A stretch of DNA of 16,767 nucleotides from a virus (taxonomy: Duplodnaviria > Heunggongvirae > Uroviricota > Caudoviricetes). Location of the stretch: IMG/VR virus record IMGVR_UViG_2877263951_000002; one strand, written 5' to 3'. A model generated the notes under the pieces. The model was not told the DNA's origin. It worked only from the letters and a program-made list of their open reading frames with translations, and ran no database searches. Position numbers and translations under genes: made by a program. Shown piece after piece: positions 1 to 15,384 of the stretch; position 1 is the stretch's first letter; each line of letters begins with the position of its first letter.

Positions 1-561
1 TCAAAACTGAAAGCGCATCCAGGCAAAGTACACATTGCCATTGTTGTAGGTACCCGGAATGTAGGTCATCTGAAAAGTCACTGGGCCATAACCCACGGAG
101 GCCAATGGCAGTAGAACCGGGAGAGGGATGTAATTCCAGTTATCGCGTGCCGTTACGCCAGCGGTGAATCCCAGACCTAAATGAAAATTTTCATCCGCCA
201 GCGGTCGCCAGGTACTTTCCCATCCGTATCCGGCAATCGGTTCCCATTTGTTCCACGAGTCCTTAAATGCCATGGCATACAGGCCATGCCAGTTTCCTTT
301 TTCATCCCAACGCGACAGGCCAAAACCGCCACCCCACGGTCGCTCGTTATAGCGATCGGTTTTTTCTTTGTCGTAAGCGAAACGTGCATGCCAGGTGATG
401 GCAGGAATATATAAATCATAATGTTCAGGCTGTTGCCAGGTTTGTGCAATATTTTCTCTAAACGTTGTCATCCTCTCATCTGCGTTAGCAAAAACTTTAC
501 CAACGCTGATTAACTGAATAAAAACAAAGGAAAAGATAGCGACATATTTACTCACGTTCAT
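1..561 (-). CDS. pagP: lipid A palmitoyltransferase PagP (CrcA)
   Basis: Minus-strand ORF with stop TGA at 1-3 (window edge) and ATG at 559-561, 186 aa ([12 protein letters not shown]...YFAWMRFQF). Recognised as E. coli PagP. The 8 extra N-terminal residues in the ORF track come from an upstream TTG and are not used. Confidence 0.9.
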
Positions 562-1149: not shown

Positions 1150-2535
1150 ATGCTGACATTCATTGAACTCCTTATTGGGGTTGTGGTTATTGTGGGTGTG
1201 GCTCGCTACATCATTAAAGGGTATTCCGCCACTGGTGTGTTATTTGTCGGTGGCCTGTTATTGCTGATTATCAGTGCCATTATGGGGCACAAAGTGTTAC
1301 CGTCCAGCCAGGCTTCAACAGGCTACAGCGCCACGGATATCGTTGAATACGTTAAAATATTACTAATGAGCCGCGGCGGCGACCTCGGCATGATGATTAT
1401 GATGCTGTGTGGCTTTGCCGCTTACATGACCCATATCGGCGCGAATGATATGGTGGTCAAGCTGGCGTCAAAACCATTGCAGTATATTAACTCCCCTTAC
1501 CTGCTGATGATTGCCGCCTATTTTGTTGCTTGTCTGATGTCACTGGCCGTCTCTTCCGCAACCGGTCTGGGTGTTTTGCTGATGGCAACCCTGTTTCCGG
1601 TGATGGTAAACGTTGGTATCAGTCGTGGCGCAGCAGCTGCCATTTGTGCCTCCCCGGCGGCGATTATTCTCGCACCGACTTCAGGGGATGTGGTGCTGGC
1701 GGCGCAGGCTTCCGAAATGTCGCTGATTGACTTCGCCTTCAAAACGACGCTGCCTATCTCAATTGCTGCAATTATCGGCATGGCGATCGCCCACTTCTTC
1801 TGGCAACGTTATCTGGATAAAAAAGAGCACATCTCTCATGAAATGTTAGATGTCAGTGAAATCACCACCACTGCCCCCGCGTTTTATGCCATTTTGCCGT
1901 TCACGCCGATCATCGGTGTACTGATTTTTGACGGTAAATGGGGTCCGCAATTACACATCATCACTATTCTGGTGATTTGTATGCTGATTGCCTCCATTCT
2001 GGAGTTCCTCCGCAGCTTTAATACCCAGAAAGTTTTCTCTGGTCTGGAAGTGGCTTATCGCGGGATGGCAGATGCGTTTGCTAACGTGGTGATGCTGCTG
2101 GTTGCCGCTGGGGTATTCGCTCAGGGGCTTAGCACCATCGGCTTTATTCAAAGTCTGATTTCTATCGCTACCTCGTTTGGTTCGGCGAGTATCATCCTGA
2201 TGCTGGTATTGGTGATTCTGACCATGCTGGCGGCAGTCACGACCGGTTCAGGCAATGCGCCGTTTTATGCGTTTGTTGAGATGATCCCGAAACTGGCGCA
2301 CTCTTCCGGCATTAACCCGGCGTATTTGACTATCCCGATGCTGCAGGCGTCAAACCTGGGTCGTACCCTATCACCCGTTTCTGGCGTAGTCGTTGCGGTT
2401 GCCGGGATGGCGAAAATCTCACCATTTGAAGTCGTAAAACGCACCTCGGTGCCGGTGCTTGTTGGGCTAGTGATTGTTATCGTTGCTACAGAGCTGATGG
2501 TGCCAGGAACGGCAGCAGCGGTCACAGGCAAGTAA
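1150..2535 (+). CDS. dcuC: anaerobic C4-dicarboxylate transporter DcuC
   Basis: ATG at 1150 preceded by AGGA (1140-1143), stop TAA 2533-2535, 461 aa, very hydrophobic multi-pass membrane protein. Recognised as E. coli DcuC; divergent from pagP and convergent with dpiA as in E. coli K-12. The 34-residue upstream extension in the ORF track is not used. Confidence 0.92.
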   Translation: MLTFIELLIGVVVIVGVARYIIKGYSATGVLFVGGLLLLIISAIMGHKVLPSSQASTGYSATDIVEYVKILLMSRGGDLGMMIMMLCGFAAYMTHIGANDMVVKLASKPLQYINSPYLLMIAAYFVACLMSLAVSSATGLGVLLMATLFPVMVNVGISRGAAAAICASPAAIILAPTSGDVVLAAQASEMSLIDFAFKTTLPISIAAIIGMAIAHFFWQRYLDKKEHISHEMLDVSEITTTAPAFYAILPFTPIIGVLIFDGKWGPQLHIITILVICMLIASILEFLRSFNTQKVFSGLEVAYRGMADAFANVVMLLVAAGVFAQGLSTIGFIQSLISIATSFGSASIILMLVLVILTMLAAVTTGSGNAPFYAFVEMIPKLAHSSGINPAYLTIPMLQASNLGRTLSPVSGVVVAVAGMAKISPFEVVKRTSVPVLVGLVIVIVATELMVPGTAAAVTGK

Positions 2536-2575: not shown

Positions 2576-2917
2576 TCACCCACTGTGGTATATGCGTTGT
2601 GGTCTGCCAACTTTGCCGTGAACAATTTCAGCAATAATCAGATGGCGGCTGGCGCAATATTCAAGATAACGCCTGGCAGTGGTGCGGCTGATGGTCAGTG
2701 CCTGCGCCACCGTTTCTGCCGTATGTTGCACACCAGGCTCTTTAAACAGTTTTCGCACCGCGTTTAGCGTCAAGGGGTCAATGCCGGTCGGCAGTTCGTC
2801 TTTGGGTTCACCGCGAGCATAGGCATTAAACATCTCATCAATTTGCTTCTGGCTGGCGCTATCAATACTTTCCAGCATATGTTTACGCTGGCGGAAACGG
2901 GTTAGCGTTTGCCCCAG
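2576..2917 (-). pseudogene. dpiA: 3' half of response regulator gene dpiA (citB), interrupted by Mu-type insertion
   Basis: Minus-strand frame open from 2917 to stop TGA 2576-2578 (113 codons: LGQTLTRFRQRKHMLESIDSASQKQIDEMF...RRYLEYCASRHLIIAEIVHGKVGRPQRIYHSG), recalled as the C-terminal DNA-binding half of DpiA. The frame closes 3-4 codons into the Mu-type end (stop at 2927-2929). N-terminal receiver half is not in the window. Confidence 0.8.
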
Positions 2918-3088
2918 TGTATTGATTCACTTGAAGTACGAAAAAACCGGGAGAACATTGGATTATTCGGGATCTGATGGGATTAGATTTGGTGGGGCTT
3001 GCAAGCCTGTAGTACAAATTTTAGGCGTTAACCAATGAAACGCGAAAGATAGTAAAAAATTGCTTTTGTTTCATTGAAAAAACGAAAA
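2918..3088 (+). other. Mu-type attL with transposase end-binding sites (L1 2923-2944; L3-like 3067-3088)
   Basis: 2923-2944 TGATTCACTTGAAGTACGAAAA and 3067-3088 TGTTTCATTGAAAAAACGAAAA both fit the MuA end-site consensus TGNTTCAYTNNAARYRCGAAAA; 3036-3049 contains an ACGCGAAAG half-site-like motif. Confidence 0.7.
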
Positions 3089-3254
3089 ACAAAAACACTA
3101 TAAATCATTTCAATCATAGCTTCAAAAAACGTTCAAAACCGATAACAACCAGGCTGTCACCAAATGACTCATATCACAAATCAGCTCATGCCGTTTAGGT
3201 ATGTTACATGTGTGATTATGTGAGGTGAAGTATGTTTTAGCTGGCTCATGGTTG

Positions 3255-3764
3255 TTATACGGCTTTTTTCGCATCTTGTGGTTCCAACAAAGGAGCTACA
3301 GGCTCTTCCTGTTTATGAACACCATACATTGACAAAATCTCTTGGCGAGTTTCTGGAGGTAATTTATGCAGCGCCAAAGCTGTTTGTAGTGTTTGGCGAT
3401 CAATACCCAGCGTTGCCAATAGGGTGTCAACGGAGATGGAGGGGCGTTCTTGCATTAATCCGGAAAGCCCATATTTAGCCATGTTTAGCTCTATCTCTCG
3501 GACTTCATTTTCTCCTAGTTTATTGATTAACAGGGAGAACATTTTCAATGTATCAGCATTCATTTCTTCGATAGCAATTTTTTGCATAGCCGGTATTGCC
3601 GGGATATATTCAACCCCAGGCCCGCGACGCCCTTCTTGTGAACGCTTCGGCCATCCTTCTTTCTTTGCTCGTTTATGCACCCCCTGTATTGTCCCTGGCA
3701 TTCCATCCAGTTCAGTAATTTGTTTGGGTGTCATCCACTGGTTTATCTCATTTGCGCTTTTCAT
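3255..3764 (-). CDS. c: Mu/D108-type repressor (Repc-like)
   Basis: ATG 3762-3764, stop TAA 3255-3257, 169 aa. The C-terminal region (...RQEILSMYGVHKQEEPVAPLLEPQDAKKAV) closely resembles the Mu repressor C-terminus (...KEILSKYGIHEQES...KKAV) and the N-terminus has the MPG..GVH.RA...GW.KR winged-helix motif shared with MuA and Mu Repc. Divergent from Mu in detail, so D108-like by inference. Confidence 0.8.
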   Translation of the reverse strand: MKSANEINQWMTPKQITELDGMPGTIQGVHKRAKKEGWPKRSQEGRRGPGVEYIPAIPAMQKIAIEEMNADTLKMFSLLINKLGENEVREIELNMAKYGLSGLMQERPSISVDTLLATLGIDRQTLQTALALHKLPPETRQEILSMYGVHKQEEPVAPLLEPQDAKKAV

Positions 3765-3917
3765 AAACTAAGTTTACCAGATTTATCTATATAAAAATCA
3801 ATGGATTACAAAATAAACCACATTAACTGATATAAACCAGTTTTGTTTATTTGGTAATGTATAAAACAGATAATCAAGACGAATTATTTGTTTTGGTAAC
3901 CCTTTATCATACGCAAT
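3765..3917. promoter_or_regulatory. early operator/promoter region between divergent c and ner (expected Pe/Pc and repressor operators)
   Basis: 153-bp AT-rich spacer between divergently transcribed repressor and ner, the position of O1-O3, the IHF site and Pe/Pc in Mu. Individual operators were not delimited from sequence alone. Confidence 0.45.
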
Positions 3918-4172
3918 ATGGTTGGTGTGCGAAAGATGAGTAACGATTGGCATCGGGCCGACGTGATTGCGGCCCTCAAAAAAACAGGAACCCCTCTGGC
4001 AAAATTGTCCAGACGTTCAGGTTATTCAACCGGGACGCTTGCAAATGCATTAGTCAGGCCATGGCCTAAAGGTGAACGCATTATTGCTGACGCCTTAAAC
4101 ATGAAACCTGAGGAAATTTGGCCTAGTAGATATCTAAGGGATCACAATGAGAGAGTGGATATCAGCAATTGA
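3918..4172 (+). CDS. ner: Ner-like DNA-binding early regulator
   Basis: ATG 3918 (alternative ATG at 3936), stop TGA 4170-4172. [13 protein letters not shown]...TLANAL...WPKGE.IIA.AL...PE.IWPSRY matches the Mu Ner family along its length. The 3' end overlaps the A start by 26 nt. Confidence 0.75.
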
Positions 4173-5781
4173 ATGCATGGGTTTATCTGGTTTACCTGGT
4201 TCATTAATGGGGGTTCACAAAAGAGCTCAGAGAGAAGGATGGCTCAAGAGAAGAAGAGAAGGAATTAGAGGGGTTGCTTACGAATACCATATATCTTCTC
4301 TTCCTAACATTGCTCGAGCTGAAGTTTTGCTCCAACAAGGAAAATTTAAAACCAGTCAGGGATGTTTTGAAATCGCCCGCCCCACGCTGGAAGCTCATGA
4401 TTATGATCGTGAGGCACTATGGAGCAAATGGGATAAAGCCAGCGATTCCCAGCGCAGCCTGGCTGAAAAATGGTTGCCCTCAATTCAGGCCACAGACGAA
4501 ATGCTGAACCAGGGGATTTCAACGAAAACGGCTTTTGCGACCGTTGCAGGGCATTACCAGGTCAGCGCATCCACTTTGCGGGACAAGTATTACCAGGTAC
4601 AGAAGTTTGCGAAGCCTGACTGGGCGGCTGCACTTGTTGATGGACGTGGAGCATCCCGTCGCAATGTTCACAAAAGTGAATTTGACGAGGATGCCTGGCA
4701 GTTTCTGATTGCAGATTATCTGCGACCGGAAAAACCCGCCTTCCGCAAATGTTATGAGCGTCTGGAACTGGCAGTCCGCGAGCATGGCTGGAGTATTCCC
4801 TCCCGTGCCACGGCCTTTCGCCGGATTCAGCAACTGGACGAGGCAATGGTTGTTGCCTGTCGTGAAGGTGAACATGCACTGATGCATCTGATACCGGCAC
4901 AGCAGCGAACTGTGGAACACCTGGACGCCATGCAGTGGATCAACGGCGACGGTTATCTGCATAACGTCTTTGTACGCTGGTTTAACGGTGATGTGATCCG
5001 TCCGAAAACATGGTTCTGGCAGGATGTGAAAACCCGAAAAATTCTGGGCTGGCGCTGCGATGTGAGCGAGAACATTGATTCAATTCGCCTCTCGTTCATG
5101 GATGTTGTGACTCGCTACAGTATCCCGGAGGATTTTCACATCACCATTGATAACACCCGTGGTGCTGCGAATAAATGGCTGACGGGAGGCGCGCCCAATC
5201 GCTACCGCTTTAAGGTAAAAGAGGACGATCCAAAAGGACTGTTTTTACTGATGGGTGCGAAAATGCACTGGACAAGCGTTGTTGCCGGTAAAGGCTGGGG
5301 CCAGGCAAAACCTGTTGAACGTGCTTTCGGTGTTGGTGGGCTTGAGGAATACGTTGATAAGCATCCGGCACTGGCTGGCGCATATACGGGGCCAAATCCG
5401 CAGGCAAAACCTGATAACTATGGCGACCACGCTGTTGATGCAGAGCTGTTTCTGAAAACCTTTGCCGAAGGTGTGGCGATGTTCAATGCCAGAACAGGCC
5501 GTGAAACAGAAATGTGCGGGGGCAAACTCTCGTTTGATGATGTTTTCGAGCGTGAATACGCCAGAACGATTGTGCGTAAGCCAACCGAAGAACAAAAACG
5601 GATGCTGTTACTGCCTGCCGAGGCGGTGAACGTTTCACGCAAAGGCGAGTTTACGCTTAAAGTTGGCGGCTCCCTTAAAGGCGCGAAAAACGTTTATTAC
5701 AACATGGCATTAATGAATGCCGGAGTGAAAAAAGTTGTGGTCAGATTTGATCCACAGCAGTTACACAGCACGGTTTATTGA
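4147..5781 (+). pseudogene. A: Mu-type transposase A, 3'-truncated (544 of about 663 codons); stop codon supplied by IS600 terminus
   Basis: ATG 4147 with AAGGGA 6-7 nt upstream; protein near-identical to recalled MuA over residues about 60-544 (...[12 protein letters not shown]) and divergent in the first about 60 residues. After codon 544 the sequence becomes the IS600 end (TGA at 5779-5781). Confidence 0.9.
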
Positions 5782-5842
5782 GATAGCCTGAGTTTAACGG
5801 ACACTCCTTCCTGAAATAGAATGGCATCAGAAGGAGCTAATA

Positions 5843-6145
5843 ATGAGCAGAAAAACCCGACGTTACTCTAAAGAGTTCAAAGCCGAAGCTGTCAGAACGG
5901 TTCTTGAAAATCAACTTTCGATCAGTGAAGACGCTTCCCGATTATTCCTTCCTGAAGGCACTTTAGGACAATGGGTTACCGCCGCCAGAAAAGGGCTCGG
6001 TACTCCTGGTTCCCGCACGCTGGCTGAACTGGAATCTGAAATTCTGCAACTGCGTAAGGCGTTAAATGAAGCTCGCCTTGAGCGAGATATATTAAAAAAA
6101 GCAACAGCGTATTTTGCACAGGAGTCGCTGAAAAATACGCGTTAA
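5843..6145 (+). CDS. IS600 OrfA (transposase N-terminal HTH subunit)
   Basis: ATG 5843 with GGAG 8 nt upstream; 100 aa MSRKTRRYSKEFKAEAV...; contains the slippery run at 6094-6100. Confidence 0.85.
   Translation: MSRKTRRYSKEFKAEAVRTVLENQLSISEDASRLFLPEGTLGQWVTAARKGLGTPGSRTLAELESEILQLRKALNEARLERDILKKATAYFAQESLKNTR
6094..6100 (+). other. programmed -1 ribosomal frameshift heptamer A_AAA_AAA(G) of IS600 copy 1
   Basis: Zero-frame codons AAA AAA at 6095-6100 in orfA; the -1 frame is open from 6100 through the orfB ATG at 6181, as expected for OrfAB fusion transposase of IS3-family elements. Confidence 0.6.
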
Positions 6146-6180
6146 TCGAACAATGGCGACAACAATTTCCCATTGAAGCG

Positions 6181-6999
6181 ATGTGTCAGGTATTTGGTGT
6201 ATCCAGGAGCGGTTATTACAACTGGGTACAGCATGAACCCTCAGACAGAAAACAAAGTGATGAACGGCTAAAACTGGAGATTAAGGTGGCACATATCCGC
6301 ACTCGCGAAACATATGGAACCCGGCGGCTCCAGACGGAGCTGGCAGAGAATGGCATCATCGTTGGTCGTGACCGACTGGCATGTCTTCGTAAGGAGCTGA
6401 GGCTACGCTGTAAGCAGAAACGCAAGTTCAGAGCGACTACGAACCCGAACCACAATCTGCCAGTTGCGCCAAATCTGCTGAACCAGACGTTCGCTCCTAC
6501 AGCACCAAATCAGGTCTGGGTGGCGGACCTGACGTATGTTGCCACACAGGAGGGATGGTTGTACCTCGCTGGCATCAAAGATGTTTATACGTGCGAAATT
6601 GTCGGCTACGCCATGGGAGAGCGCATGACAAAAGAGCTGACAGGTAAAGCCCTGTTTATGGCGCTCAGGAGCCAGCGCCCACCTGCCGGGCTAATCCACC
6701 ACTCTGATCGAGGTTCACAGTACTGCGCATACGATTACCGGGTCATACAGGAGCAGTCTGGTCTGAAAACATCAATGTCGCGTAAAGGTAACTGTTACGA
6801 CAACGCTCCGATGGAAAGCTTCTGGGGAACGCTGAAAAATGAGAGCCTGAGCCACTATCGTTTTAATAACCGGGATGAAGCCATCTCAGTAATACGGGAA
6901 TACATTGAGATTTTCTACAATCGTCAGCGTCGTCACTCTCGTCTGGGGAATATCTCCCCGGCAGCCTTCAGGGAAAAATATCATCAGATGGCTGCTTAA
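6181..6999 (+). CDS. IS600 OrfB (DDE catalytic domain; normally expressed as OrfAB fusion)
   Basis: 272-aa ORF in the -1 frame relative to orfA; contains typical IS3-family DDE region (...WVADLTYV..., ...HSDRGSQY..., ...NCYDNAPMESFWGTLK...). Confidence 0.85.
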   Translation: MCQVFGVSRSGYYNWVQHEPSDRKQSDERLKLEIKVAHIRTRETYGTRRLQTELAENGIIVGRDRLACLRKELRLRCKQKRKFRATTNPNHNLPVAPNLLNQTFAPTAPNQVWVADLTYVATQEGWLYLAGIKDVYTCEIVGYAMGERMTKELTGKALFMALRSQRPPAGLIHHSDRGSQYCAYDYRVIQEQSGLKTSMSRKGNCYDNAPMESFWGTLKNESLSHYRFNNRDEAISVIREYIEIFYNRQRRHSRLGNISPAAFREKYHQMAA

Positions 7000-7042
7000 A
7001 AAAAGAACAAATGGTAGTGTCCGCTATTGCCAGTACACCTCA

Positions 7043-7241
7043 ATTCTTTGGCATTTTTTACCTCGTTACGCGCGTCTGTGGCTTTGCCAACGGATACTTC
7101 CGCGTGCGCACGAGTGAACCAGTGCGTGGCAACGTCTTCCTCCACAACATGACGGCCTTTAACAAACTCGCGCCGAGAACCGTCGGGAAGCGTGAGCACA
7201 AACGGGGTATGTACGTGTATTACTGCATCATTTTTTGCCAT
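7043..7241 (-). pseudogene. small phage gene downstream of the major capsid gene, 3'-truncated by IS600 copy 1
   Basis: ATG 7239-7241 with AAGGA 8 nt upstream; 66 phage-encoded codons (MAKNDAVIHVHTPFVLTLPDGSRREFVKGRHVVEEDVATHWFTRAHAEVSVGKATDARNEVKNAKE), then the frame runs into IS600. Function unknown. Confidence 0.4.
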
Positions 7242-7282
7242 CGGGTCATCCTTAATGGCCCCGCCAGGGGGCCATGTGGCTG

Positions 7283-8224
7283 TTAAATGCCATCAACGTA
7301 CGAAATGGTTTCTTTGTACACTGGCTCGACTGCACCCAGCTTGCCGTAGTAAGTGACGATCTGATACAGACCGCGATACTGCACCGGCACGCTCTGAAGC
7401 GGAACCAGCGGGTAGCGGACGTATTTTTTATCGTTGGTGTACGCAACCATGCGATCCTTATTCCCCACACCACGGCCTTTCAGCCATTTAACCGCGCGGA
7501 TATTCAGCGGAACACCGTTCTGGTGATAGCTGATGGTGTTGGTCTGAAGGTTCGTCAACAGGGACTGGTTACCTGCAGATGAAACGATGATGCTGGACAA
7601 CAGAGCAAACTGCTCAGGCGGGATCAGCAAATCACGCGGAACCACAGAGTAACCAGAAGCGGCCCACGCATCAGACAGCACCTGGTTAATGCTTGCGCGG
7701 ATTTCGTCCGGTGTTGAGGTTGCCCACGTTTTGGCAGCGTTGTTGACAGGCACGCCGTCCAGGGTAACAAGGCCTTTCAGGTTTAATGCGGAATCGCCAA
7801 CATATACCTGTTCATCGTTATCCATCTGCCATTTCAGTTGCATACCGTCATACTTCTGCGTATCAATCGGGCGGCCGACCTGCTGAGCAGCCTGCAATTC
7901 TATGACCGTCCAGCCAAGTTCCATCCCCCACAGGTTCAGCGGGTTACCGGATTTGCCGATATCCACGTTCACGCCAGCAATAGCGGTTGAGTCTTTGCCT
8001 ACCCAGTTTTTTCCATTCGGATTTGCGCCAGTACCCGCAGCGGCGAAGCTGGTATTCGTCCAGCTGGAAATGTCATCTGCGATGGAGGCGTCTTCACGCA
8101 GTTGAATATCGCGGCTCCAGGTGTACCCCACCAGTGGCAGGTTCAGCGTCTGGTCGAGTCTCTCCAGCTCCCCGATGAGAAAGGCACCAGAGCTGTCAAC
8201 GGTTGCCTGATCAAAAGTAATCAT
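7283..8224 (-). CDS. phage major capsid protein (DUF2184-like family by recall)
   Basis: ATG 8222-8224 with AAGGAA 7-8 nt upstream, stop TAA 7283-7285, 313 aa; position after scaffold-like and small genes in a head module; sequence recalled as a prophage major capsid family. Family assignment unverified. Confidence 0.65.
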   Translation of the reverse strand: MITFDQATVDSSGAFLIGELERLDQTLNLPLVGYTWSRDIQLREDASIADDISSWTNTSFAAAGTGANPNGKNWVGKDSTAIAGVNVDIGKSGNPLNLWGMELGWTVIELQAAQQVGRPIDTQKYDGMQLKWQMDNDEQVYVGDSALNLKGLVTLDGVPVNNAAKTWATSTPDEIRASINQVLSDAWAASGYSVVPRDLLIPPEQFALLSSIIVSSAGNQSLLTNLQTNTISYHQNGVPLNIRAVKWLKGRGVGNKDRMVAYTNDKKYVRYPLVPLQSVPVQYRGLYQIVTYYGKLGAVEPVYKETISYVDGI

Positions 8225-8368
8225 TCGTCTGTTCCTTAAATCTTCCAGGAAATTTCTGCATTGCCGTCAGCATCACCGGCACCTGTGAATTCAGCGTTGG
8301 TCAGCACCACGTTTTTGCCACTGACTGACGTGGACATGAATCCACCCAGAGGCACTTTGATGGATTCA

Positions 8369-8725
8369 TCAGTGGAGATCGCCTTTTTTGATAGTGCTGG
8401 CATCAAAATCAGAACCGAGATTAACGGTCACGTAGCCACGCTTCATGGCGTCGCCCGGGAAGTTCTTGCCTGTTCCCACCTGGCGAACCATGTCCGGCTG
8501 CGACGTGGTCGGATAAGGGCGCACGTAGATCCCCTTCACCTTGTCTGCGGTATCACCATCTGCCAGCGGCACGAAAAAACCGTCATCATCGTATTTACCA
8601 GCCAGGCCATAGGCAGCGAAGGCGTTATCGGATTTAAGGACCACCGGTTCGACGGTTAAGTCCTGCGGGCGAGAGACAGCCCCGGCAATGCCAACAGGCA
8701 TCCGGTACAGAAATACATTATTCAT
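8369..8725 (-). CDS. small phage head-module protein (possible decoration/structural protein)
   Basis: ATG 8723-8725 with AAGGG upstream, stop TGA 8369-8371, 118 aa; lies between scaffold-like gene and capsid gene. Function inferred only from position. Confidence 0.4.
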   Translation of the reverse strand: MNNVFLYRMPVGIAGAVSRPQDLTVEPVVLKSDNAFAAYGLAGKYDDDGFFVPLADGDTADKVKGIYVRPYPTTSQPDMVRQVGTGKNFPGDAMKRGYVTVNLGSDFDASTIKKGDLH

Positions 8726-8728
8726 TTT

Positions 8729-9172
8729 TTACCCTTTACGGTTTGCCCAGAATTCAGCGTTTTGTTTGTTCAGGGAAGCGATACTGGTCATGCCCATGTT
8801 TAGGCGCTGTGCATCGCCGGTGGTGGCGCGGGTGTTTCGCCCTTTGGCAACCTCAGACACGGCATTAAACGCCATGTCGACCGATTGTTTCGGTAATTTG
8901 CGGATATCCGCATCACCGACTATCTGGCGAACCAGCGTTTTGTCAGCAGAAGCCAGAACCTCGCGTTTGAACGCGGTCGGTTTCATCTTACGGCTCAGAT
9001 CGATACCCGGAACGATAACTTCGGCACGCCAGGCTGAGTCACCAGTAATCGTGGTTTCCTCTTCATCGTCCTCGCCGTCACCGGTCGGATTATCGTCAGG
9101 CTTATTATCGTTATCGCCCGTGGCATTTCTTTCCAGCTTAGCCAGCAGGGCTTTCAGTAATGTTTTGAGGTC
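8729..9172 (-). pseudogene. 3' part of phage scaffold/maturation-like gene interrupted by IS600 copy 2
   Basis: Minus-strand frame is open from the IS600 boundary (9172) to stop TAA 8729-8731 with no upstream start of its own (...DLKTLLKALLAKLERNATGDNDNKPDDNPTGDGEDDEEETTITGDSAWRAEVIVPGIDLSRKMKPTAFKREV...). It continues in phase with the 10437-11216 part across the 3-bp duplication. Confidence 0.6.
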
Positions 9173-9236
9173 TGAGGTAGCCTGAGTTTAACGGACACTC
9201 CTTCCTGAAATAGAATGGCATCAGAAGGAGCTAATA

Positions 9237-9539
9237 ATGAGCAGAAAAACCCAACGTTACTCTAAAGAGTTCAAAGCCGAAGCTGTCAGAACGGTTCTTG
9301 AAAATCAACTTTCGATCAGTGAAGGCGCTTCCCGATTATCTCTTCCTGAAGGCACTTTAGGACAATGGGTTACCGCCGCCAGAAAAGGGCTCGGTACTCC
9401 TGGTTCCCGCACGCTGGCTGAACTGGAATCTGAAATTCTGCAACTGCGTAAGGCGTTAAATGAAGCTCGCCTTGAGCGAGATATATTAAAAAAAGCAACA
9501 GCGTATTTTGCACAGGAGTCGCTGAAAAATACGCGTTAA
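9237..9539 (+). CDS. IS600 OrfA
   Basis: 100 aa; differs from copy 1 OrfA at 3 residues (Q6, G30, S35 versus R, D, F). Confidence 0.85.
   Translation: MSRKTQRYSKEFKAEAVRTVLENQLSISEGASRLSLPEGTLGQWVTAARKGLGTPGSRTLAELESEILQLRKALNEARLERDILKKATAYFAQESLKNTR
9488..9494 (+). other. programmed -1 frameshift heptamer A_AAA_AAA(G) of IS600 copy 2
   Basis: Same position as in copy 1 (offset 3394). Confidence 0.6.
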
Positions 9540-9574
9540 TCGAACAATGGCGACAACAATTTCCTATTGAAGCG

Positions 9575-10393
9575 ATGTGTCAGGTATTTGGTGTATCCAG
9601 GAGCGGTTATTACAACTGGGTACAGCATGAACCCTCAGACAGAAAACAAAGTGATGAGCGGCTAAAACTGGAGATTAAGGTGGCACATATCCGCACTCGC
9701 GAAACATATGGAACCCGGCGGCTCCAGACGGAGCTGGCAGAGAATGGCATCATCGTTGGTCGTGACCGACTGGCACGTCTTCGTAAGGAGCTGAGGCTAC
9801 GCTGTAAGCAGAAACGCAAGTTCAGAGCGACTACGAACCCGAACCACAATCTGCCAGTTGCGCCAAATCTGCTGAACCAGACGTTCGCTCCTACAGCACC
9901 AAATCAGGTCTGGGTGGCGGACCTGACGTATGTTGCCACACAGGAGGGATGGTTGTACCTCGCTGGCATCAAAGATGTTTATACGTGCGAAATTGTCGGC
10001 TACGCCATGGGAGAGCGCATGACAAAAGAGCTGACAGGTAAAGCCCTGTTTATGGCGCTCAGGAGCCAGCGCCCACCTGCCGGGCTAATCCACCACTCTG
10101 ATCGAGGTTCACAGTACTGCGCATACGATTACCGGGTCATACAGGAGCAGTTTGGTCTGAAAACATCAATGTCGCGTAAAGGTAACTGTTACGACAACGC
10201 TCCGATGGAAAGCTTCTGGGGAACGCTGAAAAATGAGAGCCTGAGCCACTATCGTTTTAATAACCGGGATGAAGCCATCTCAGTAATACGGGAATACATT
10301 GAGATTTTCTACAATCGTCAGCGTCGTCACTCTCGTCTGGGGAATATCTCCCCGGCAGCCTTCAGGGAAAAATATCATCAGATGGCTGCTTAA
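9575..10393 (+). CDS. IS600 OrfB
   Basis: 272 aa; differs from copy 1 OrfB at 2 residues (R versus C; F versus S). Confidence 0.85.
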   Translation: MCQVFGVSRSGYYNWVQHEPSDRKQSDERLKLEIKVAHIRTRETYGTRRLQTELAENGIIVGRDRLARLRKELRLRCKQKRKFRATTNPNHNLPVAPNLLNQTFAPTAPNQVWVADLTYVATQEGWLYLAGIKDVYTCEIVGYAMGERMTKELTGKALFMALRSQRPPAGLIHHSDRGSQYCAYDYRVIQEQFGLKTSMSRKGNCYDNAPMESFWGTLKNESLSHYRFNNRDEAISVIREYIEIFYNRQRRHSRLGNISPAAFREKYHQMAA

Positions 10394-10436
10394 AAAAAGA
10401 ACAAATGGTAGTGTCCGCTATTGCCAGTACACCTCA

Positions 10437-11216
10437 GTCATCATCACTGTCGCCGGTTGGATCTCCGCCCATCTCTGGTGCTTTGTCCGGTAGTGGTTGC
10501 TGCGGGGACAGGTTGATGTTGAGATTAACGCCCTGCGGCAAATCCCCCTCATCTCCTGTAACCGATGCGGGAGCCGACTCCACCAGTTCGTTCATGGTGT
10601 CGGCATCTCCTGTCTTGATGGCCGCACGCATGCGGTTCCACCAGTTTTTCTTTTGATTTGCCATTGTGTCTCTGTCTCCAATTGCACAACGATTTCCGGC
10701 TCTGCCTTTAGGGACAAGAGCCACATGGTTTCCGGTAATATCGACCTGCTCGGCTTTACCTGGCTCGGTCTGCTCGTACTCCGCGTCATAGCCGCACGAC
10801 ACTTCGCGCAGGCCATCTTCGATAAGCTGAATGGCGCTTTCGTCTTTGACGATAAGGTCAGCCAGCATCAAATCAGACTGCTCACCCGTCCCGCGCCGGA
10901 CATTCTGGAGGTGCCCGACAGCAAGCACTTTCCAGTTCTCGGGATTTACCAGCCGCACATTCCCGTTTTCATCTTCAGGATGCAGGATCGTGATGCTCAT
11001 CCCTTCGAATGAGGCAAGCGTGGCCGGATGGAATACCTGCTCAGGAGAACGCGTGACGACTATTTCAACGAACTTATCGGGTTTCAGTTTTGGCAGGTCA
11101 TCAGCACCATAGAGCTGCTTACCTGTTCGTCCTATCGGCACGTCTTTGCACAGCAACGAGCCGTCAGCCAGGCGGTATCGGGTTTCCCCGAGCCTGGTCT
11201 CAAAAAAGTATTTCAT
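10437..11216 (-). pseudogene. 5' part of phage scaffold/maturation-like gene (DUF2213-like by recall) interrupted by IS600 copy 2
   Basis: ATG 11214-11216; 260 codons ending ...PTGDSDDD, where the last D codon (GAC) is the target duplication and the stop TGA (10434-10436) is the IS600 terminus. Confidence 0.6.
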
Positions 11217-11219
11217 GGG

Positions 11220-12002
11220 TTATGCTGCCCTTTTCATTGCGAATGGAACGCGAACAAACACGATCTCTTTATAGCAGCGGCAGTTTGGCAGCTCGCCCGC
11301 GTGGCCGGTCATGCCGTCCAAAGTTGGAGGTGAATCCCAGCGGACGAATTTACCTTTCATGTGATCGTGGGAATCTCGGACATCGCCATCATCGGCTGTA
11401 CGCCAAATATAACCATCCGAGCCAATAGCTATCGCTCGGGCCATATCCAGCGCGCCCGTTGCTCTTCCCAGTTCCGTTCGGGCAATCAGATCGGCCCTAG
11501 ACTTAGCAACATCGCCGGTAGATGCAATCTCTTTAGCAAACTGCTCCGCCCGACCACCGGTGACAACAGCCTCTATCGCTTTGTTCTGGATGTCGTACAC
11601 CCTGTCTGCGGCCTCGAGAGGCAGAGATTTGATGTACTTGACCTGTTCGGCGATGATGGATTGCATCACCTGGCCCACAGGAGCGCTTTCCACAAGATTG
11701 CGGAGCTCGCGACTGATGTTCTTGCTGTGTTGCCGCCAAACTTTCTCGTTCTGCCGGGTTAGGTCCGCAGTAAAGTTTTCCGCGACCTTTGTCGCCCAGG
11801 GGGTGATGATTTCACTGTAACGCTCCAGCGCCGCAATAATTTCCGTGATACTGTCATTTGAACCATCGTAGCGACCATTTACGATGTCTCCGACCGCCCT
11901 CGCTATCCTGCGTAGGCTGGTTCGATACCGGATTTCCGCCTGACGGCTCCTGCGGTTCGTCATCAGGTTCGCCGATGCCGGGCGGCGCTTCATCTTCGGC
12001 AT
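11220..12002 (-). CDS. phage head morphogenesis protein (Mu F / SPP1 gp7-like minor head protein)
   Basis: ATG 12000-12002 (alternative ATGs at 11993 and 11963), stop TAA 11220-11222, 260 aa; C-terminal region with ...HAGELPNCRCY... typical of the Mu F-like family; lies directly after the portal gene. Start uncertain; overlaps portal 3' end by up to 149 nt. Confidence 0.65.
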   Translation of the reverse strand: MPKMKRRPASANLMTNRRSRQAEIRYRTSLRRIARAVGDIVNGRYDGSNDSITEIIAALERYSEIITPWATKVAENFTADLTRQNEKVWRQHSKNISRELRNLVESAPVGQVMQSIIAEQVKYIKSLPLEAADRVYDIQNKAIEAVVTGGRAEQFAKEIASTGDVAKSRADLIARTELGRATGALDMARAIAIGSDGYIWRTADDGDVRDSHDHMKGKFVRWDSPPTLDGMTGHAGELPNCRCYKEIVFVRVPFAMKRAA

Positions 12003-13320
12003 TCTCGATGTCCTCGTTGGTAATGGATGCCCCTATGCCGGTTACGTCAGAATTTTCTCGCAAATCAGTCATAGCGGCTTTCAGTGTCATCAGACCATCA
12101 CCCAGCGCCGTACTGATTGCGTTGGTGGTGTTTAACGCCACCGTTGAGCGATCGACATCAGACATTTGCCAGAGCGGGTTAAACTCAAACGTGAAATCGT
12201 CCGGCAGCGGCTTGCCAAGTTCCGAACGATGCATGATGTCCAGTATCCGCCGCACCGGAAGACGTAAACGCCTCTCCTGCAACGAACTGATGCGATCGTA
12301 ATAGTTGGCAAGGTCTGCATCACCGGTAGAAAATCCTTTCGGGGACTGTCCGAACAACCGCACCAGTGGGATACCAACAGCGCCACTAATCTGTTCTGCA
12401 AACTGCGAAAGGATGTCATCCAGACCACTGAAGCTGTACTGATGGGTTTCAAACTTATCCCGCGAGTCCATGAGCGTCATGCCTTCATTACTCTGGAACT
12501 GTCGAATCAGGTCGATATTCTTCAGCAACGCTTCATACGCAGGACCACCAAGTGCGATAAGCTCGCGTAGCTTCTCCACGCTGTAGGTACGCAAATGCGC
12601 CTTGTAGACCAGCTGCGCCGCGCCGACAGTAGCGCTGTCGAACGCGGTAAGACGATCCCAGATACGCTCTACAACCGACATTCCCCATTCGTTCTCGGTC
12701 ATCTTCTGCTGAAATGGCAACGTGACGCCATCAAAGCGAATCAGGCGACTGTGATGAATGCGCCAGGCAGGAATTCCCGTTGCTGTGGTCACCACATCGT
12801 AAAACTCAGGTTTACCCAGGTCCGGCCCCATATCTTTAATGCGGCGGGTCAGTGCCGGGTCGACCATCCAGCGGTCGAGCGGGAGAATCCCCTTAAACTT
12901 GCCCTTACCGATGGTTTCGGGTCGCAGCGGGGTCATTGGTGCCTGCCCCTCAATCATGATGAAACCCACCGCGCCGCCGTAGAGGCGCGACCATTTCAGC
13001 ACGTCATTCAGCGCATCCCAGATTTGCAACTCATCCAGTTGTGATTCGAGAATGCCACGATCTTTTGCATCAATTTCCGAAGTGATGCGAATGCCTTTGC
13101 GGGTCATATCATCCGGGATAGCATCGACTGCTTCGCCGATGATCCAGGATGAACGATAGGACCATTCCACCAGCATGCGGTTACGACTGGTGAAATTAGC
13201 CCGGTAGGTGGATGCTGAGTGCTGGTTAGGTGTCTGCATCCCTACTCGGGCAATAAAATTCTCATAACCATCAGCTGTGGCCTGCACAGTTCGCCGCAGG
13301 GCTTGTTTGTTTCGTGCCAT
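11854..13320 (-). CDS. phage portal protein (DUF1073-like by recall)
   Basis: ATG 13318-13320 overlapping the TerL stop (ATGA), stop TGA 11854-11856, 488 aa with acidic C-terminal tail; position between TerL and head morphogenesis gene. Confidence 0.7.
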   Translation of the reverse strand: MARNKQALRRTVQATADGYENFIARVGMQTPNQHSASTYRANFTSRNRMLVEWSYRSSWIIGEAVDAIPDDMTRKGIRITSEIDAKDRGILESQLDELQIWDALNDVLKWSRLYGGAVGFIMIEGQAPMTPLRPETIGKGKFKGILPLDRWMVDPALTRRIKDMGPDLGKPEFYDVVTTATGIPAWRIHHSRLIRFDGVTLPFQQKMTENEWGMSVVERIWDRLTAFDSATVGAAQLVYKAHLRTYSVEKLRELIALGGPAYEALLKNIDLIRQFQSNEGMTLMDSRDKFETHQYSFSGLDDILSQFAEQISGAVGIPLVRLFGQSPKGFSTGDADLANYYDRISSLQERRLRLPVRRILDIMHRSELGKPLPDDFTFEFNPLWQMSDVDRSTVALNTTNAISTALGDGLMTLKAAMTDLRENSDVTGIGASITNEDIENAEDEAPPGIGEPDDEPQEPSGGNPVSNQPTQDSEGGRRHRKWSLRWFK

Positions 13321-14053
13321 CAGGCCTGTCTCCCCAGCTGTTCCCAGATATCCAGCGATGTATCGATTGGCGCGAAGGCCATAATGAATGCATCAGCAAC
13401 GTTTGGTGACGGTATCTCGCGTTTTGCGAGGTCTTTTTTACTTTCGACCATCACACGTCCGTTACGGTCGAAATCACGATGAGGTGTTGTCAGTTCCAGT
13501 TTCAGCTTTTCAAGCAACGGACAACGAGAATCTATGCTGATCAGCTCATCCACAGGATACTGTTCTCCGTTGTTAATGGCGTTAAACGTATTTCTGAAAC
13601 GGTCAGCCACCATGCCTGAGCCTTAAGATTTGCGAAAAAGTCTTTGTTGGGGATGCCGTTGTACTCGTCATCTGGCTCATGCACACCAGCACCGGCGTTA
13701 AACCTCTGGTAATTCACACGTCGCGCGTATGCGTTCTCGCTCTTCCGGTCAGCGTTAATTTCAGAGAATTTAGCACCGGCAGACGCACCAACACCGATAG
13801 AGTCGTAAACAATATCTGCTTCACGCTCCAGCGCCGCCTGATAAGTACGCTGGCAGCTCTTCAGTAATTCATCTTCTTTGGCCTTCCATTCGTCGGCCCA
13901 GAAAACAACGGATCCGTGACGGTAAACGTTAGCGCACTTATCTGTACCACTGTCAGCCACGTCAAAGCCAATACGCTTTCTTCCACTGGGTTCGAAATTT
14001 AACGTTTTGTGCGCATCCACTGCGGCTTCTATCCAAGACAGTTTGATGATTGC
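13320..14053 (-). pseudogene. terminase large subunit, 3' (nuclease-domain) part; separated from its 5' part by IS2 and carrying a 1-bp frameshift near 13604-13612
   Basis: Two overlapping minus-strand frames: 14053-13544 (...NLKAQAWW LTVSEIR... stop 13541-13543) and 13622-13323 (...VADRFRNTFNAINNGEQYP...RVMVESKKDLAKREIPSPNVADAFIMAF..., stop TGA 13320-13322). Together they resemble a single TerL C-terminus. Confidence 0.7.
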
Positions 14054-14064
14054 TGGATTTGCCC

Positions 14065-14970
14065 CTATATTTCCAGACATCTGTTATCACTTAACCCATT
14101 ACAAGCCCGCTGCCGCAGATATTCCCGTGGCGAGCGATAACCCAGCGCACTATGCGGATGCCATTCGTTATAATGCTCGAACGCCTCTGCAAGGTTCTTT
14201 GCTGCCGTTAACCCGTCTGGTTTGGGCATGATACTGATGTAGTCACGCTTTATCGTTTTCACGAAGCTCTATGCTATTCCGTTACTCTCCGGACTCCGCA
14301 CCGCCGTGTTCTTCGGTTCAAGTCCCAACATCCGGGCGAACTGGCGTGTTTCATTAGCCCGGTAGCATGAACCATTATCCGTCAGCCACTCCACTGGAGA
14401 CGACGGAAGATCGTTGCCGAAGCGGCGTTCCACCGCTCCCAGCATGACGTCCTGTACTGTTTCACTGTTGAAGCCGCCGGTAGTCACCGCCCAGTGCAGT
14501 GCCTCACGATCACAGCAGTCCAGCGCGAACGTGACACGCAGTCTCTCTCCGTTATCACAGCAGAACTCGAACCCGTCAGAGCACCATCGCTGATTGCTTT
14601 CTTTCACGGCCACTCTGCCTGTATGTGCCCGTTTCGATGGCGGTACAGCAGGTTTTCGCTCAAGCAACAGCGCATTCTGGCGCATGAGCCGGTAAACACG
14701 TTTGGCATTGATCGCAGGCATACCATCAAGTTCTGCCTGTCTGCGAAGCAGCGCCCATACCCGACGATAACCATACGTGGGCAGCTCTCCGATAACATGG
14801 TGTATACGGAGAAGCACATCCGTATCATCAGTGTGACGACTGCGGCGGCCATCCATCCAGTCATCGGTTCGTCTGAGAATGACGTGCAACTGCGCACGCG
14901 ACACCCGGAGACAACGGCTGACTAAGCTTACTCCCCATCCCCGGGCAATAAGGGCGCGTGCGCTATCCAC
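14065..14970 (-). pseudogene. insD: IS2 insD (OrfB, DDE transposase domain) with in-frame TAG at 14269-14271
   Basis: GTG at 14968-14970 (the -1 frame entry point), frame open to TAG at 14269-14271 (233 codons), then the same frame continues for 67 more InsD-like codons to TAG at 14065-14067 (...[19 protein letters not shown]...NRCLEI). Recalled canonical InsD has Glu at this codon. Confidence 0.8.
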
Positions 14971-15293
14971 TTTTTTGCCCGTCCATATTCAACGGCTTCT
15001 TTGAGGAGTTCATTTTCCATCGTTTTCTTGCCGAGCAGGCGCTGGAGTTCTTTAATCTGCTTCATGGCGGCAGCAAGTTCAGAGGCAGGAACAACCTGTT
15101 CTCCGGCGGCCACAGCAGTAAGACTTCCTTCCTGGTATTGCTTACGCCAGAGAAATAACTGGCTGGCTGCTACACCATGTTGCCGGGCAACGAGGGAGAC
15201 CGTCATCCCCGGTTCAAAGCTCTGCTGAACAATTGCGATCTTTTCCTGTGTGGTACGCCGTCTGCGTTTCTCCGGCCCTAAGACATCAATCAT
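14928..15293 (-). CDS. insC: IS2 InsC (OrfA, HTH subunit)
   Basis: ATG 15291-15293, stop TAA 14928-14930, 121 aa [26 protein letters not shown]...; the 15 extra N-terminal residues in the ORF track are not used. Slippery heptamer A_AAA_AAG on minus strand at 14970-14976. Confidence 0.88.
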
Positions 15294-15384
15294 CTGTTCT
15301 CCAATGACTAGTCTAAAAACTAGTATTAAGACTATCACTTAAATAAGTGATACTGGTTGTCTGGAGATTCAGGGGGCCAGTCTA

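Follow-up and report, generated by a model that had tools for sequence, protein, structure and literature searches.

The locus described here raises the question of how a single, intact copy of the insertion sequence IS600 came to lie between gene A of a Mu-like prophage and the head genes of an unrelated lambdoid prophage. The window, that is, the whole stretch of 16,767 nucleotides that was analysed, shows 100% identity to Shigella flexneri CP026765.1. A sequence-only reading had regarded the interval 5776-7045, which comprises the element plus its two flanking triplets, not as a simple insertion but as the trace of recombination between two IS copies, or of an IS-mediated adjacent deletion. 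The element in question (copy 1) and a second IS600 in the window (copy 2) are each 1264 bp long, share one orientation and are distinguished by 9 positions. The junction consists of the following features:

5776-5778, plus strand: left flanking triplet TAT, codon 544 of Mu A
5779-7042, plus strand: the IS600 element of the recombinant junction (copy 1), 1264 bp, ends TG...CA
5843-6145 and 6181-6999, plus strand: orfA and orfB of copy 1 (Pfam HTH_Tnp_1 and rve)
7043-7045, plus strand: right flanking triplet ATT, reverse complement of DUF4054 codon 4 (AAT)

Both transposase reading frames of copy 1 are intact (orfA with 100 aa; orfB with 272 aa and Pfam matches to rve, rve_3 and rve_2); a fused orfA-orfB product is called at 385 aa, and an A7G slippery run at 6095-6102 is a candidate -1 frameshift site. 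The terminal inverted repeats of IS600 are imperfect and align as TGAG...CTCA in both copies. Along its entire length copy 1 shows 99.8% identity to the "IS3-like element IS600 family transposase" of S. flexneri pINV plasmids, and IS600 copies elsewhere are at least 99.2% identical to it; a private change of G to A marks its left inverted repeat at position 5 (5783), an A that only copy 1 has and that is linked to both flanks in every genome examined. At the left edge ...CACGGTTTAT is directly followed by TGAGATAGCC, at the right edge ...CACCTCA by ATTCTTTGGC. The two triplets indeed do not match, and the identical direct repeats expected of a simple insertion are absent; copy 1 is thus a single intact IS with flanks from two different original sites, one in Mu A and one at the head/tail boundary of the other prophage. 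The left part of the window is composed as follows:

1-561, minus strand: pagP, complete backbone gene (186 aa, Pfam PagP, 99.3% identity to E. coli pagP)
1150-2535, plus strand: dcuC, complete backbone gene (461 aa, Pfam DcuC)
2576-2917, minus strand: C-terminal fragment of dpiA, about 113 codons, cut by Mu (Pfam HTH_64)
2918-5778, plus strand: left-end stump of the Mu-like prophage with attL, c, ner and truncated A, starting at Mu base 1, TGTATTGATTCACTTG
3255-3764, minus strand: c repressor of the stump (Pfam HTH_Tnp_Mu_1)
3936-4172: ner of the stump (Pfam HTH_35)
4147-5781, plus strand: truncated MuA reading frame, 544 aa (Pfam HTH_Tnp_Mu_1/2, DDE_2, Mu-transpos_C)

The placement of the Mu-like prophage in dpiA, already proposed from the letters, is borne out by the order of the backbone (pagP, dcuC, the C-terminal fragment of dpiA, and then Mu attL at 2918), and the match to the E. 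coli chromosome stops at 2917; the converse order, dpiA-dcuC-pagP with Mu in pagP, was considered and is contradicted by the gene calls. Within the stump the genes follow the order of Mu (attL, c, ner, A), and the part of A at 4335-5778 is 97.9% identical to Mu. The left flank was correctly assigned to codon 544 of a Mu-type A gene: the reading frame ends in ...HSTVY, with Y544 encoded by TAT, and its TGA stop codon is made of the first three bases of IS600. Native Mu continues after TAT with TGCTACACC; TG is common to Mu and the IS, so that the breakpoint is ambiguous by 2 nt. Exactly this 544-aa protein occurs in 61 blocks of public assemblies, where it is named transposase of Shigella flexneri. 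Neither attR nor the 5′ part of dpiA is present in the window or in any of the fetched loci.

One might imagine that the stump is retained in S. flexneri as an anti-Mu module, in which the repressor would confer immunity and the truncated transposase, with its stop codon given by IS600, would act in a dominant-negative manner. This seems very doubtful. What speaks for it is that the c repressor is intact and of a previously unsampled immunity type, the truncated MuA keeps its DNA-binding and catalytic-core domains while domain III is gone, and the reading frames of the stump are intact and identical across many strains, a conservation that carries little weight because S. flexneri is a young species.

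The right part of the window belongs to a lambdoid prophage with a contractile tail, for which the prophage of E. coli FDAARGOS_944 (L001) serves as the uninterrupted reference:

6996-7241, minus strand: STY1053-family gene that lost its last 7 codons, 66 native plus 15 IS600-encoded residues (81 aa; translations compared)
7043-9172, minus strand: fragment of the head module, 98.7% identity to L001 12001-14147
7283-8224, minus strand: DUF2184 major capsid gene
8236-8725, minus strand: cement-protein pseudogene with a 17-bp deletion
8729-9172, minus strand: 3′ part of the DUF2213 gene
9173-10436, plus strand: IS600 copy 2, 1264 bp, a simple insertion in the DUF2213 gene with the duplication GTC (9170-9172, 10437-10439)
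10437-14053, minus strand: rest of the head module, with the DUF2213 5′ part, a Mu-F-like head morphogenesis gene, the portal gene and the terminase 3′ part, 99.6% identity to L001 14145-17768
11854-13320, minus strand: DUF1073 portal gene
14054-15384, minus strand: IS2, 1331 bp, in the terminase large-subunit gene, with the 5-bp duplication ATTGC; the empty site was found, and the element is 99.7% identical to an annotated IS2 in another locus (L024)
15385-16767, minus strand: 5′ part of the terminase large-subunit gene and a 254-aa upstream gene (16003-16767), 99.7% identity to L001 17764-19146

The right flank had been described as the 3′ end of a small, leftward-transcribed gene of the head module; it proved to be that of the STY1053-family gene, which overlaps the start of the DUF4054 gene. 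The flank starts at L001 base 12001 within this overlap, and codons 1-4 of DUF4054 (MPKN) are left at 7043-7054 on the minus strand. The 81-aa STY1053-IS600 fusion is annotated in S. flexneri 2a 2457T and found on 461 contigs. The terminase large-subunit gene has, in addition to the IS2, a 7-bp deletion near 13603; the terminase gene of E. coli FDAARGOS_943 also carries an IS2, which was considered as a marker common with the window but lies 215 bp away and is therefore an independent insertion. The comparison with intact versions of the head module that the sequence-only reading had called for shows that the intact prophage reads ...CAGACTTTG immediately ahead of ATT, and that in three intact relatives the DUF4054 gene and then some 12-15 kb of tail genes continue there.

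With both sides known, it can be asked whether the mismatch of the triplets is merely a 3-bp duplication that has mutated since a simple insertion took place. A shift by one base brings two of the three letters of TAT and ATT into agreement, and if the first T of the IS is assigned to the flank, GAG too has ATT directly before it. Yet the mismatch is not a decayed duplication because the flanks come from two unrelated phage genomes, Mu going on with TGCTACACC... and the intact prophage having ...CAGACTTTG; an empty site joining them was found neither in Mu, D108, SfMu and the three intact prophage relatives nor in 5,426 complete E. coli genomes. We consider a mutated duplication practically impossible, and the view that copy 1 is no simple insertion holds, as its flanks are contiguous in no reference.

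The absence of a duplication is meaningful only if IS600 normally makes one, and the sequence-only reading had conceded that it would fall if this were not so. In the uninterrupted prophage the site of copy 2 reads GAGGTCATC, which shows that GTC on either side of copy 2 is a true, perfect 3-bp duplication, as had been claimed. Copy 2 is absent from 10 other S. flexneri chromosomes, in which the DUF2213 gene is whole (406 aa), and another IS600 of S. flexneri (copy 2 of L038) is flanked by GTT on both sides. Normal insertion of IS600 thus makes a 3-bp duplication.

A second objection foreseen at that stage was an error of assembly, in which a collapsed IS600 repeat would falsely join the Mu stump and the head module. 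IS600 is a multi-copy repeat of 1.26 kb within which short-read contigs break, and two scaffolds do show chimeric paths: L007 and L008, whose unusual right flanks (DUF4376 and an MFS gene, respectively) were considered as alternative junctions, are scaffolds with N gaps inside the IS. Against this, the arrangement recurs in many drafts and in at least 14 chromosomes that different projects assembled independently, and so is no artefact of assembly; the junction-spanning reading frames recur as well (the 544-aa MuA fragment in its 61 blocks, the 81-aa fusion on its 461 contigs), and the diagnostic A of the left inverted repeat accompanies both flanks throughout. The probability that the junction is artefactual is negligible. 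Both flanks were found in 12 loci (L003, L006, L014-L023), and the left flank also in L004, L040 and L041, the last of which has the right flank too. Since the 10 chromosomes devoid of copy 2 carry the junction, it is older than copy 2; it arose before the sampled S. flexneri lineages diversified. Mu A codon 544, IS600 and DUF4054 codon 4 in succession are therefore a base-exact, species-wide marker.

Copies 1 and 2 form direct repeats around 2130 bp of capsid genes, and their fate in one strain illustrates what such repeats can do. In UGYS01000001 (L004) one IS600 is flanked by TAT and GTC and 3394 bp are gone; this IS600 has the copy-1 alleles at 8 of the 9 diagnostic sites, with the crossover 3′ of position 980. 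UGYS01000001 thus shows directly that copy 1 and copy 2 have recombined with each other and that DNA was deleted at this very locus in the process.

The copy-1 junction itself is almost certainly IS600-mediated and not a simple insertion, and a deletion by homologous recombination between two directly repeated IS600 copies is, on balance, its probable origin. We infer two parental insertions, their direct orientation and a single deletion step. In an ancestor of S. flexneri, one IS600 would have entered gene A of a Mu-like prophage residing in dpiA, duplicating TAT (codon 544), and a second one would have entered the lambdoid prophage in the same orientation at ATT (DUF4054 codon 4, where the STY1053-family gene has its 3′ end). 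The two direct repeats would then have undergone homologous recombination, leaving one IS600 whose left flank comes from the first copy and whose right flank comes from the second. The 3′ end of A, B through the late genes and attR would have been lost from the Mu side, and besides these the 5′ part of dpiA with neighbouring backbone and the tail module of the prophage.

The same end product, an intact IS with non-matching flanks, could have been made by transposase-mediated deletion, in which one IS600 already resident in either Mu A or the prophage would have undergone intramolecular transposition, or an IS-dimer, one-ended or excision-enhancer-type event, and only one flank would be an original insertion site. 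As homologous recombination and transposase-mediated deletion leave identical sequence, the data support the two routes named in the sequence-only reading without separating them. Both transposase reading frames of copy 1 are intact, and several neighbouring IS600 copies also lack duplications (GAC/CTG, GGG/AAC and TAC/CAG), as would be compatible with such activity. However, IS3-family elements move by copy-out/paste-in via a circular intermediate, which does not by itself produce adjacent deletions; the only event with both parents visible here, that in UGYS01000001, joined two pre-existing copies; and the mutated left terminal repeat of copy 1 speaks, if anything, against recent activity of this end. 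We regard a transposase-mediated origin as improbable.

Parental forms might survive if the junction arose by recombination between two insertions, and reciprocal junctions would mark an inversion or translocation in which the DNA was retained. The predicted reciprocal junctions are an IS600 left-flanked by ...CAGACTTTGATT (tail side) and one right-flanked by TATTGCTACACC... (3′ part of Mu A). An exact 30-mer of the Mu-side junction had no match in a species-representative genome collection in which the known junction, taken as a control, matched 2 complete chromosomes, so that its absence pertains to two complete junction-bearing genomes; the tail-side junction was looked for in the fetched loci of S. 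flexneri and E. coli, and these loci, 0.6 Mb in all, contain neither of the two. The search for reciprocal partners that had been suggested was thus negative within these bounds, which fits a deletion. Parental insertions with TAT/TAT in Mu A or ATT/ATT in the prophage were found neither in the 5,426 E. coli genomes nor in the fetched S. flexneri loci, and none of the complete E. coli genomes (0/5,426) has Mu at this dpiA site or a MuA-IS600 junction. No IS600-fused reciprocal protein was seen among homologues of DUF4054 or of the MuA C-terminus, a weak negative because database clusters absorb fragments into full-length clusters. Several candidates were discarded: contigs (P0122) that begin a few bases beyond the breakpoint and contain no IS600 sequence; a frameshifted full-length A gene (P0124); a case (P0128) in which Mu, 15 nt upstream of the breakpoint, adjoins the end of a different element, which we take to be of the IS10 type; and, as the missing half, the DUF4376-ipaH end of S. 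flexneri L038, which is a different, related remnant at the pphA site with an early region only 84-95% identical.

As for the far side of the composite, CP102230.1 reads entE-entB-entA-entH-cstA-ybdD-ybdH-ybdL by Pfam content and gene order, genes which on the K-12 map presumably lie just below dpiA in the same orientation; this order and placement fit nested deletions, not an inversion.

A history of several steps deserves more attention, in which a fragment of about 10 kb of the prophage, from a lysis remnant to the head genes, would have been moved to dpiA::Mu, or inversions or a translocation would have taken place, and the missing DNA might persist elsewhere. The head fragment has IS elements without duplications at both ends, and its far-side neighbour varies by strain (a second prophage remnant, a Toprim-domain gene, or ybdL). 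Close relatives of the prophage integrate at ybhA/pgl or yebY/pphA and none near dpiA, which makes them uninformative on its original site in S. flexneri; the argU/DLP12 site, considered since it would require only one simple deletion, is likewise not where intact relatives were found. Some S. flexneri drafts hold a distal tail module (spike to DUF4376) that starts from an IS600 right end, is 99.8% identical to the same EIEC prophage and does not overlap the head fragment, as expected for one split prophage, and the mor-lys region of Mu was PCR-positive in 38 of 194 strains (PMC4406740). The IS edges and neighbours without duplications and the distal tail fragments elsewhere in some strains thus make several steps or a relocation possible. 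On the other hand, the Mu-side reciprocal junction is absent from the two complete genomes that have the junction; the IS600 edge of the tail fragment lies at another site (flank CTA, L001 3391) and is not the partner of ATT; the exact tail allele occurs only on contigs below 10 kb and in no complete chromosome; the backbone flanks are collinear; and, judging from the orientations, one inversion involving a copy in Mu A and another in the prophage could not give the order truncated A, IS600, head module. We therefore hold such a history to be rather unlikely, if well short of negligible. The sequence-only reading had left open whether the Mu B-to-late region and the distal part of the other prophage were lost or rearranged; the data favour loss of DNA, with rearrangement keeping that lesser share.

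The junction explains why dpiA is truncated here and why no more than 2.9 kb is left of a Mu-like phage and no more than the head half of a lambdoid prophage, and the locus displays three stages of decay: the old recombinant junction (copy 1), a recent insertion (copy 2) and a new recombination in one strain. The junction of Mu A codon 544, IS600 and DUF4054 codon 4 was already present in the reference annotation of 2457T; no description of it was found in the literature searched. Though real, it is an ordinary scar of the well-documented IS-driven decay that Shigella genomes typically undergo, and it changes no concept because IS-mediated deletion and rearrangement are an accepted main route of genome reduction in this group.

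Compared with ordinary IS600 transposition, of which copy 2 is the textbook case, the element is the same (1264 bp, TG...CA, orfA/orfB), whereas copy 1 differs by the lack of a duplication, by non-contiguous flanks and by the private base change in its left repeat. Deletions by recombination of IS pairs, as in composite transposons, are represented by UGYS01000001, in which the intervening segment and one IS were lost; that event is recent and both parents are visible, whereas for the copy-1 junction neither parental insertion was found in the genomes and loci searched. IS-mediated deletion between homologous copies is a major route of genome decay in Shigella, IS600 belongs to the five IS that have expanded in every Shigella species, and the IS expansion has been placed in the common ancestor of S. 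flexneri (Hawkey et al. 2020, PMC7373316), which fits the species-wide fixation of the junction. The deletions described there are of the same kind, with an IS at the seam of non-contiguous DNA, no target duplication, gene loss and decay of prophages. As for Mu, 193 of 194 S. flexneri strains gave a negative PCR for gin-mom at its right end, and a Mu-related remnant hybridised in most strains, in which neither the c-ner nor the gin-mom PCR specific for SfMu was positive (Jakhetia and Verma 2015, PMC4406740). In keeping with this, the stump described here consists of attL, c, ner and truncated A only, with a divergent c-ner region; while the remnant and its boundary were unmapped in that study, the boundary is here defined to the base, at the end of IS600 in codon 544 of A, and the site is dpiA.

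Both copies of IS600 in the window have TG...CA ends, imperfect terminal inverted repeats, an orfA of 100 aa and an orfB of 272 aa; they differ from each other at 9 positions over 1264 bp and are 99.8% identical to elements annotated as "IS3-like element IS600 family transposase" on Shigella flexneri invasion plasmids. The features that bear on the argument are:

1-561, minus strand: pagP, chromosomal backbone
1150-2535: dcuC, chromosomal backbone
2576-2917, minus strand: C-terminal fragment of dpiA, chromosomal backbone
5779-7042: IS600 copy 1, full-length, 1264 bp, flanks TAT (5776-5778) and ATT (7043-7045)
9173-10436: IS600 copy 2, oriented as copy 1, full-length, 1264 bp, flanks GTC and GTC
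14054-15384, minus strand: IS2, 1331 bp, inserted into the gene for the terminase large subunit and flanked by the 5-bp duplication ATTGC

Copy 2 interrupts a DUF2213 head gene, and the empty site is seen in the uninterrupted prophage (GAGGTCATC); with its perfect GTC duplication it is a simple insertion. A further S. flexneri copy bears GTT on both sides. IS600 makes 3-bp duplications, as the sequence-only reading had supposed, and copy 1 is the exception: TAT and ATT are read directly at its ends, 5776-7045 being the element plus both triplets. In Escherichia coli FDAARGOS_943 the terminase large-subunit gene also carries an IS2; it lies 215 bp from the site used in the window and was inserted independently.

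To the left, E. coli backbone (99.3% identity) extends to base 2917. Base 2918 is Mu base 1 (TGTATTGATTCACTTG), the left terminus of a Mu-like phage whose genes c, ner and A come next. The A frame ends, as proposed, at codon 544 (Y544, TAT), with the first three bases of IS600 supplying the stop codon TGA. Native Mu reads ...CACGGTTTAT and then TGCTACACC across the breakpoint; TG is common to Mu and the element, which leaves a 2-nt uncertainty in the exact point of the break. Within the Mu stump, 3365-4334, which takes in the bulk of the c repressor, the operator region and ner and reaches about codon 60 of A, had no nucleotide match among 50,697 phage records, sensitive blastn included, while the attL end and the remainder of A around it are 85-98% identical to Mu. 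The stump thus looks like a Mu-like immunity type other than that of Mu, D108 or SfMu, which would explain why SfMu c-ner primers failed on S. flexneri remnants. One Logan contig (SRR11783474, bases 1-30) has a Mu A gene broken by the end of another element (CTGAGAGATCCCCTCATAATTTCCCC), 15 nt upstream of the point where it breaks off in S. flexneri. We take that end to be of IS10/Tn10 type; this is probably a Mu derivative of laboratory origin, and its nearness to the IS600 site is coincidental.

To the right, from 7043 to the window end, the sequence is that of a head module from a contractile-tailed lambdoid prophage, at 98.7-99.7% identity to E. coli FDAARGOS_944 and FDAARGOS_943. Both strains are ipaH-positive and share proteins whose names read "E. 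coli O28ac". The prophage is intact in these relatives, where base 7043 falls in the fourth codon of a DUF4054 gene (MPKN...). This gene overlaps the last codons of a STY1053-family gene, and upstream of it are ~12-15 kb of genes for neck, sheath, tube, baseplate and fibres. The window lacks those tail genes; DUF4054 is reduced to codons 1-4 (7043-7054, minus strand), and the STY1053-family gene, the small head-module gene whose 3' end had been recognized at this flank, lacks its final 7 codons and runs into IS600 (66 native plus 15 IS-encoded residues). Compared with an intact relative, a 17-bp deletion at ~8375 (cement-protein gene) and a 7-bp deletion at ~13603 (3' part of the terminase gene) are also present; each shifts the reading frame, and the head module has thus been inactivated several times over.

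The flanks of copy 1 thus stem from two unrelated phage genomes, and they are joined in no reference (none among 5,426 complete E. coli genomes). This excludes a target duplication that has merely decayed, and the claim that copy 1 is not a simple insertion stands.

An assembly error, the other weakness considered in the sequence-only reading, does not account for the junction. S. flexneri chromosome CP026765.1 is identical to the window over 15,781 bases (100%), the exact 544-aa truncated MuA is found in 61 blocks of public assemblies, where it is named an S. flexneri transposase, and the annotation of S. flexneri 2a 2457T includes the exact 81-aa STY1053-IS600 fusion frame, which is present on 461 contigs. 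Both flanks surround one IS600 in 12 fetched chromosome loci; the left flank is also found in UGYS01000001, S. flexneri SFBU1023 and "E. coli" ECMA0423, the last having the right flank, too. Further, position 5 of the left terminal repeat of copy 1 (window 5783) reads TGAGA instead of the TGAGG of all other IS600 examined, a G-to-A change which is private to copy 1 and occurs in every genome with the junction. Because of this private allele and the recurrence in independent assemblies, collapse of IS repeats is not credible. The change may also have crippled the left end of copy 1. Comparison with ten S. flexneri chromosome loci revealed five clustered differences between lineages in copy 1 (positions 81, 153, 168, 242 and 307; window 5859-6085) within identical flanks, which suggests gene conversion between IS600 copies.

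Ten chromosomes with the junction have no copy 2 and a whole 406-aa DUF2213 gene; the junction is therefore the older event and copy 2 a later, lineage-specific insertion. Neither the MuA-IS600 junction nor Mu at this dpiA site was encountered in any of the 5,426 complete E. coli genomes. The S. flexneri-specific junction is carried by CP178302.1 ("Escherichia coli strain ECMA0423", 4.44 Mb); despite its label, this chromosome probably belongs to the S. flexneri lineage.

The arrangement is what is expected when two directly repeated IS600 copies recombine and the intervening DNA is lost: one intact IS600 remains, with its left flank from one site and its right flank from the other. This very locus offers a worked example: UGYS01000001 has a single IS600 (11633-12896 of the fetched locus) flanked by TAT and GTC, lacks the capsid and cement segment, and is missing 3394 bp, the span from the start of copy 1 to the start of copy 2. 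As far as position 980, which takes in 8 of the 9 diagnostic sites, its surviving element has copy-1 alleles; the crossover therefore lay in the last 284 bp. This is a recent recombination between copies 1 and 2. Together with the mismatched flanks, this example supports the earlier proposal of recombination between IS copies or IS-mediated deletion. Transposase-mediated deletion in place of homologous recombination would leave the same sequence outcome; we regard it as improbable. Judging from the orientations of Mu A and the prophage, one inversion, with an IS600 in each as its end points, should not yield the order A'-IS600-head. The parental insertions (TAT/TAT and ATT/ATT) were found in none of the 5,426 E. 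coli genomes or the fetched S. flexneri loci.

Whether the missing DNA was lost or the head fragment moved is a separate matter, and a multi-step history or relocation, while the less likely course, keeps an appreciable probability because the fragment is flanked by IS junctions at either end, duplications are missing from nearby IS600 copies and, in some drafts, distal tail genes lie behind an IS600 end at another site. Relatives of the lambdoid prophage sit at ybhA/pgl and yebY/pphA. In the ten S. flexneri chromosome loci, a truncated Rz1/DedA region lies left of a 254-aa gene, followed by another IS3-family element which links the head fragment to strain-specific partners: a second lambdoid remnant (DnaC/DnaB, Q, lysis, Nu1, GpA), a Toprim-domain gene or ybdL. 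The locus is a hot spot of IS-mediated reshuffling. Neighbouring IS600 copies lack duplications (GAC/CTG and GGG/AAC in these loci; also TAC/CAG). In S. flexneri draft contigs (L030; L032, bases 1-130), an IS600 right end with flank CTA adjoins a distal tail module (genes for spike, baseplate and fibres plus DUF4376) 99.8% identical to that of an EIEC prophage; this exact allele was encountered only on contigs <10 kb.

Three observations nevertheless speak for loss rather than relocation in the older event. On the far side of the composite, CP102230.1 has entE-entB-entA-entH-cstA-ybdD-ybdH-ybdL (assigned by Pfam content and order), genes presumably placed just below dpiA in like orientation on the K-12 map, which fits nested deletions. 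The predicted reciprocal partner on the Mu side, sought as an exact 30-mer (IS600 right end, TAT and downstream A; right flank TATTGCTAC), had no match in a collection of species-representative genomes, where the known junction, searched as a control, was retrieved from two complete chromosomes. Finally, 193 of the 194 S. flexneri strains in a PCR survey lacked the Mu right end, gin-mom (PMC4406740).

The same survey detected a common Mu-related remnant by hybridization in most S. flexneri strains, reported there unmapped (PMC4406740). No description of the Mu A-IS600-DUF4054 junction was found in the literature searched; it is present in reference genome annotation. IS600 belongs to a set of five IS that have expanded in every Shigella species, with deletion and rearrangement between homologous IS copies described as a main route of Shigella genome decay (PMC7373316). 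The junction, which is real, old, species-wide and mechanistically ordinary, is a base-exact instance of that known process.
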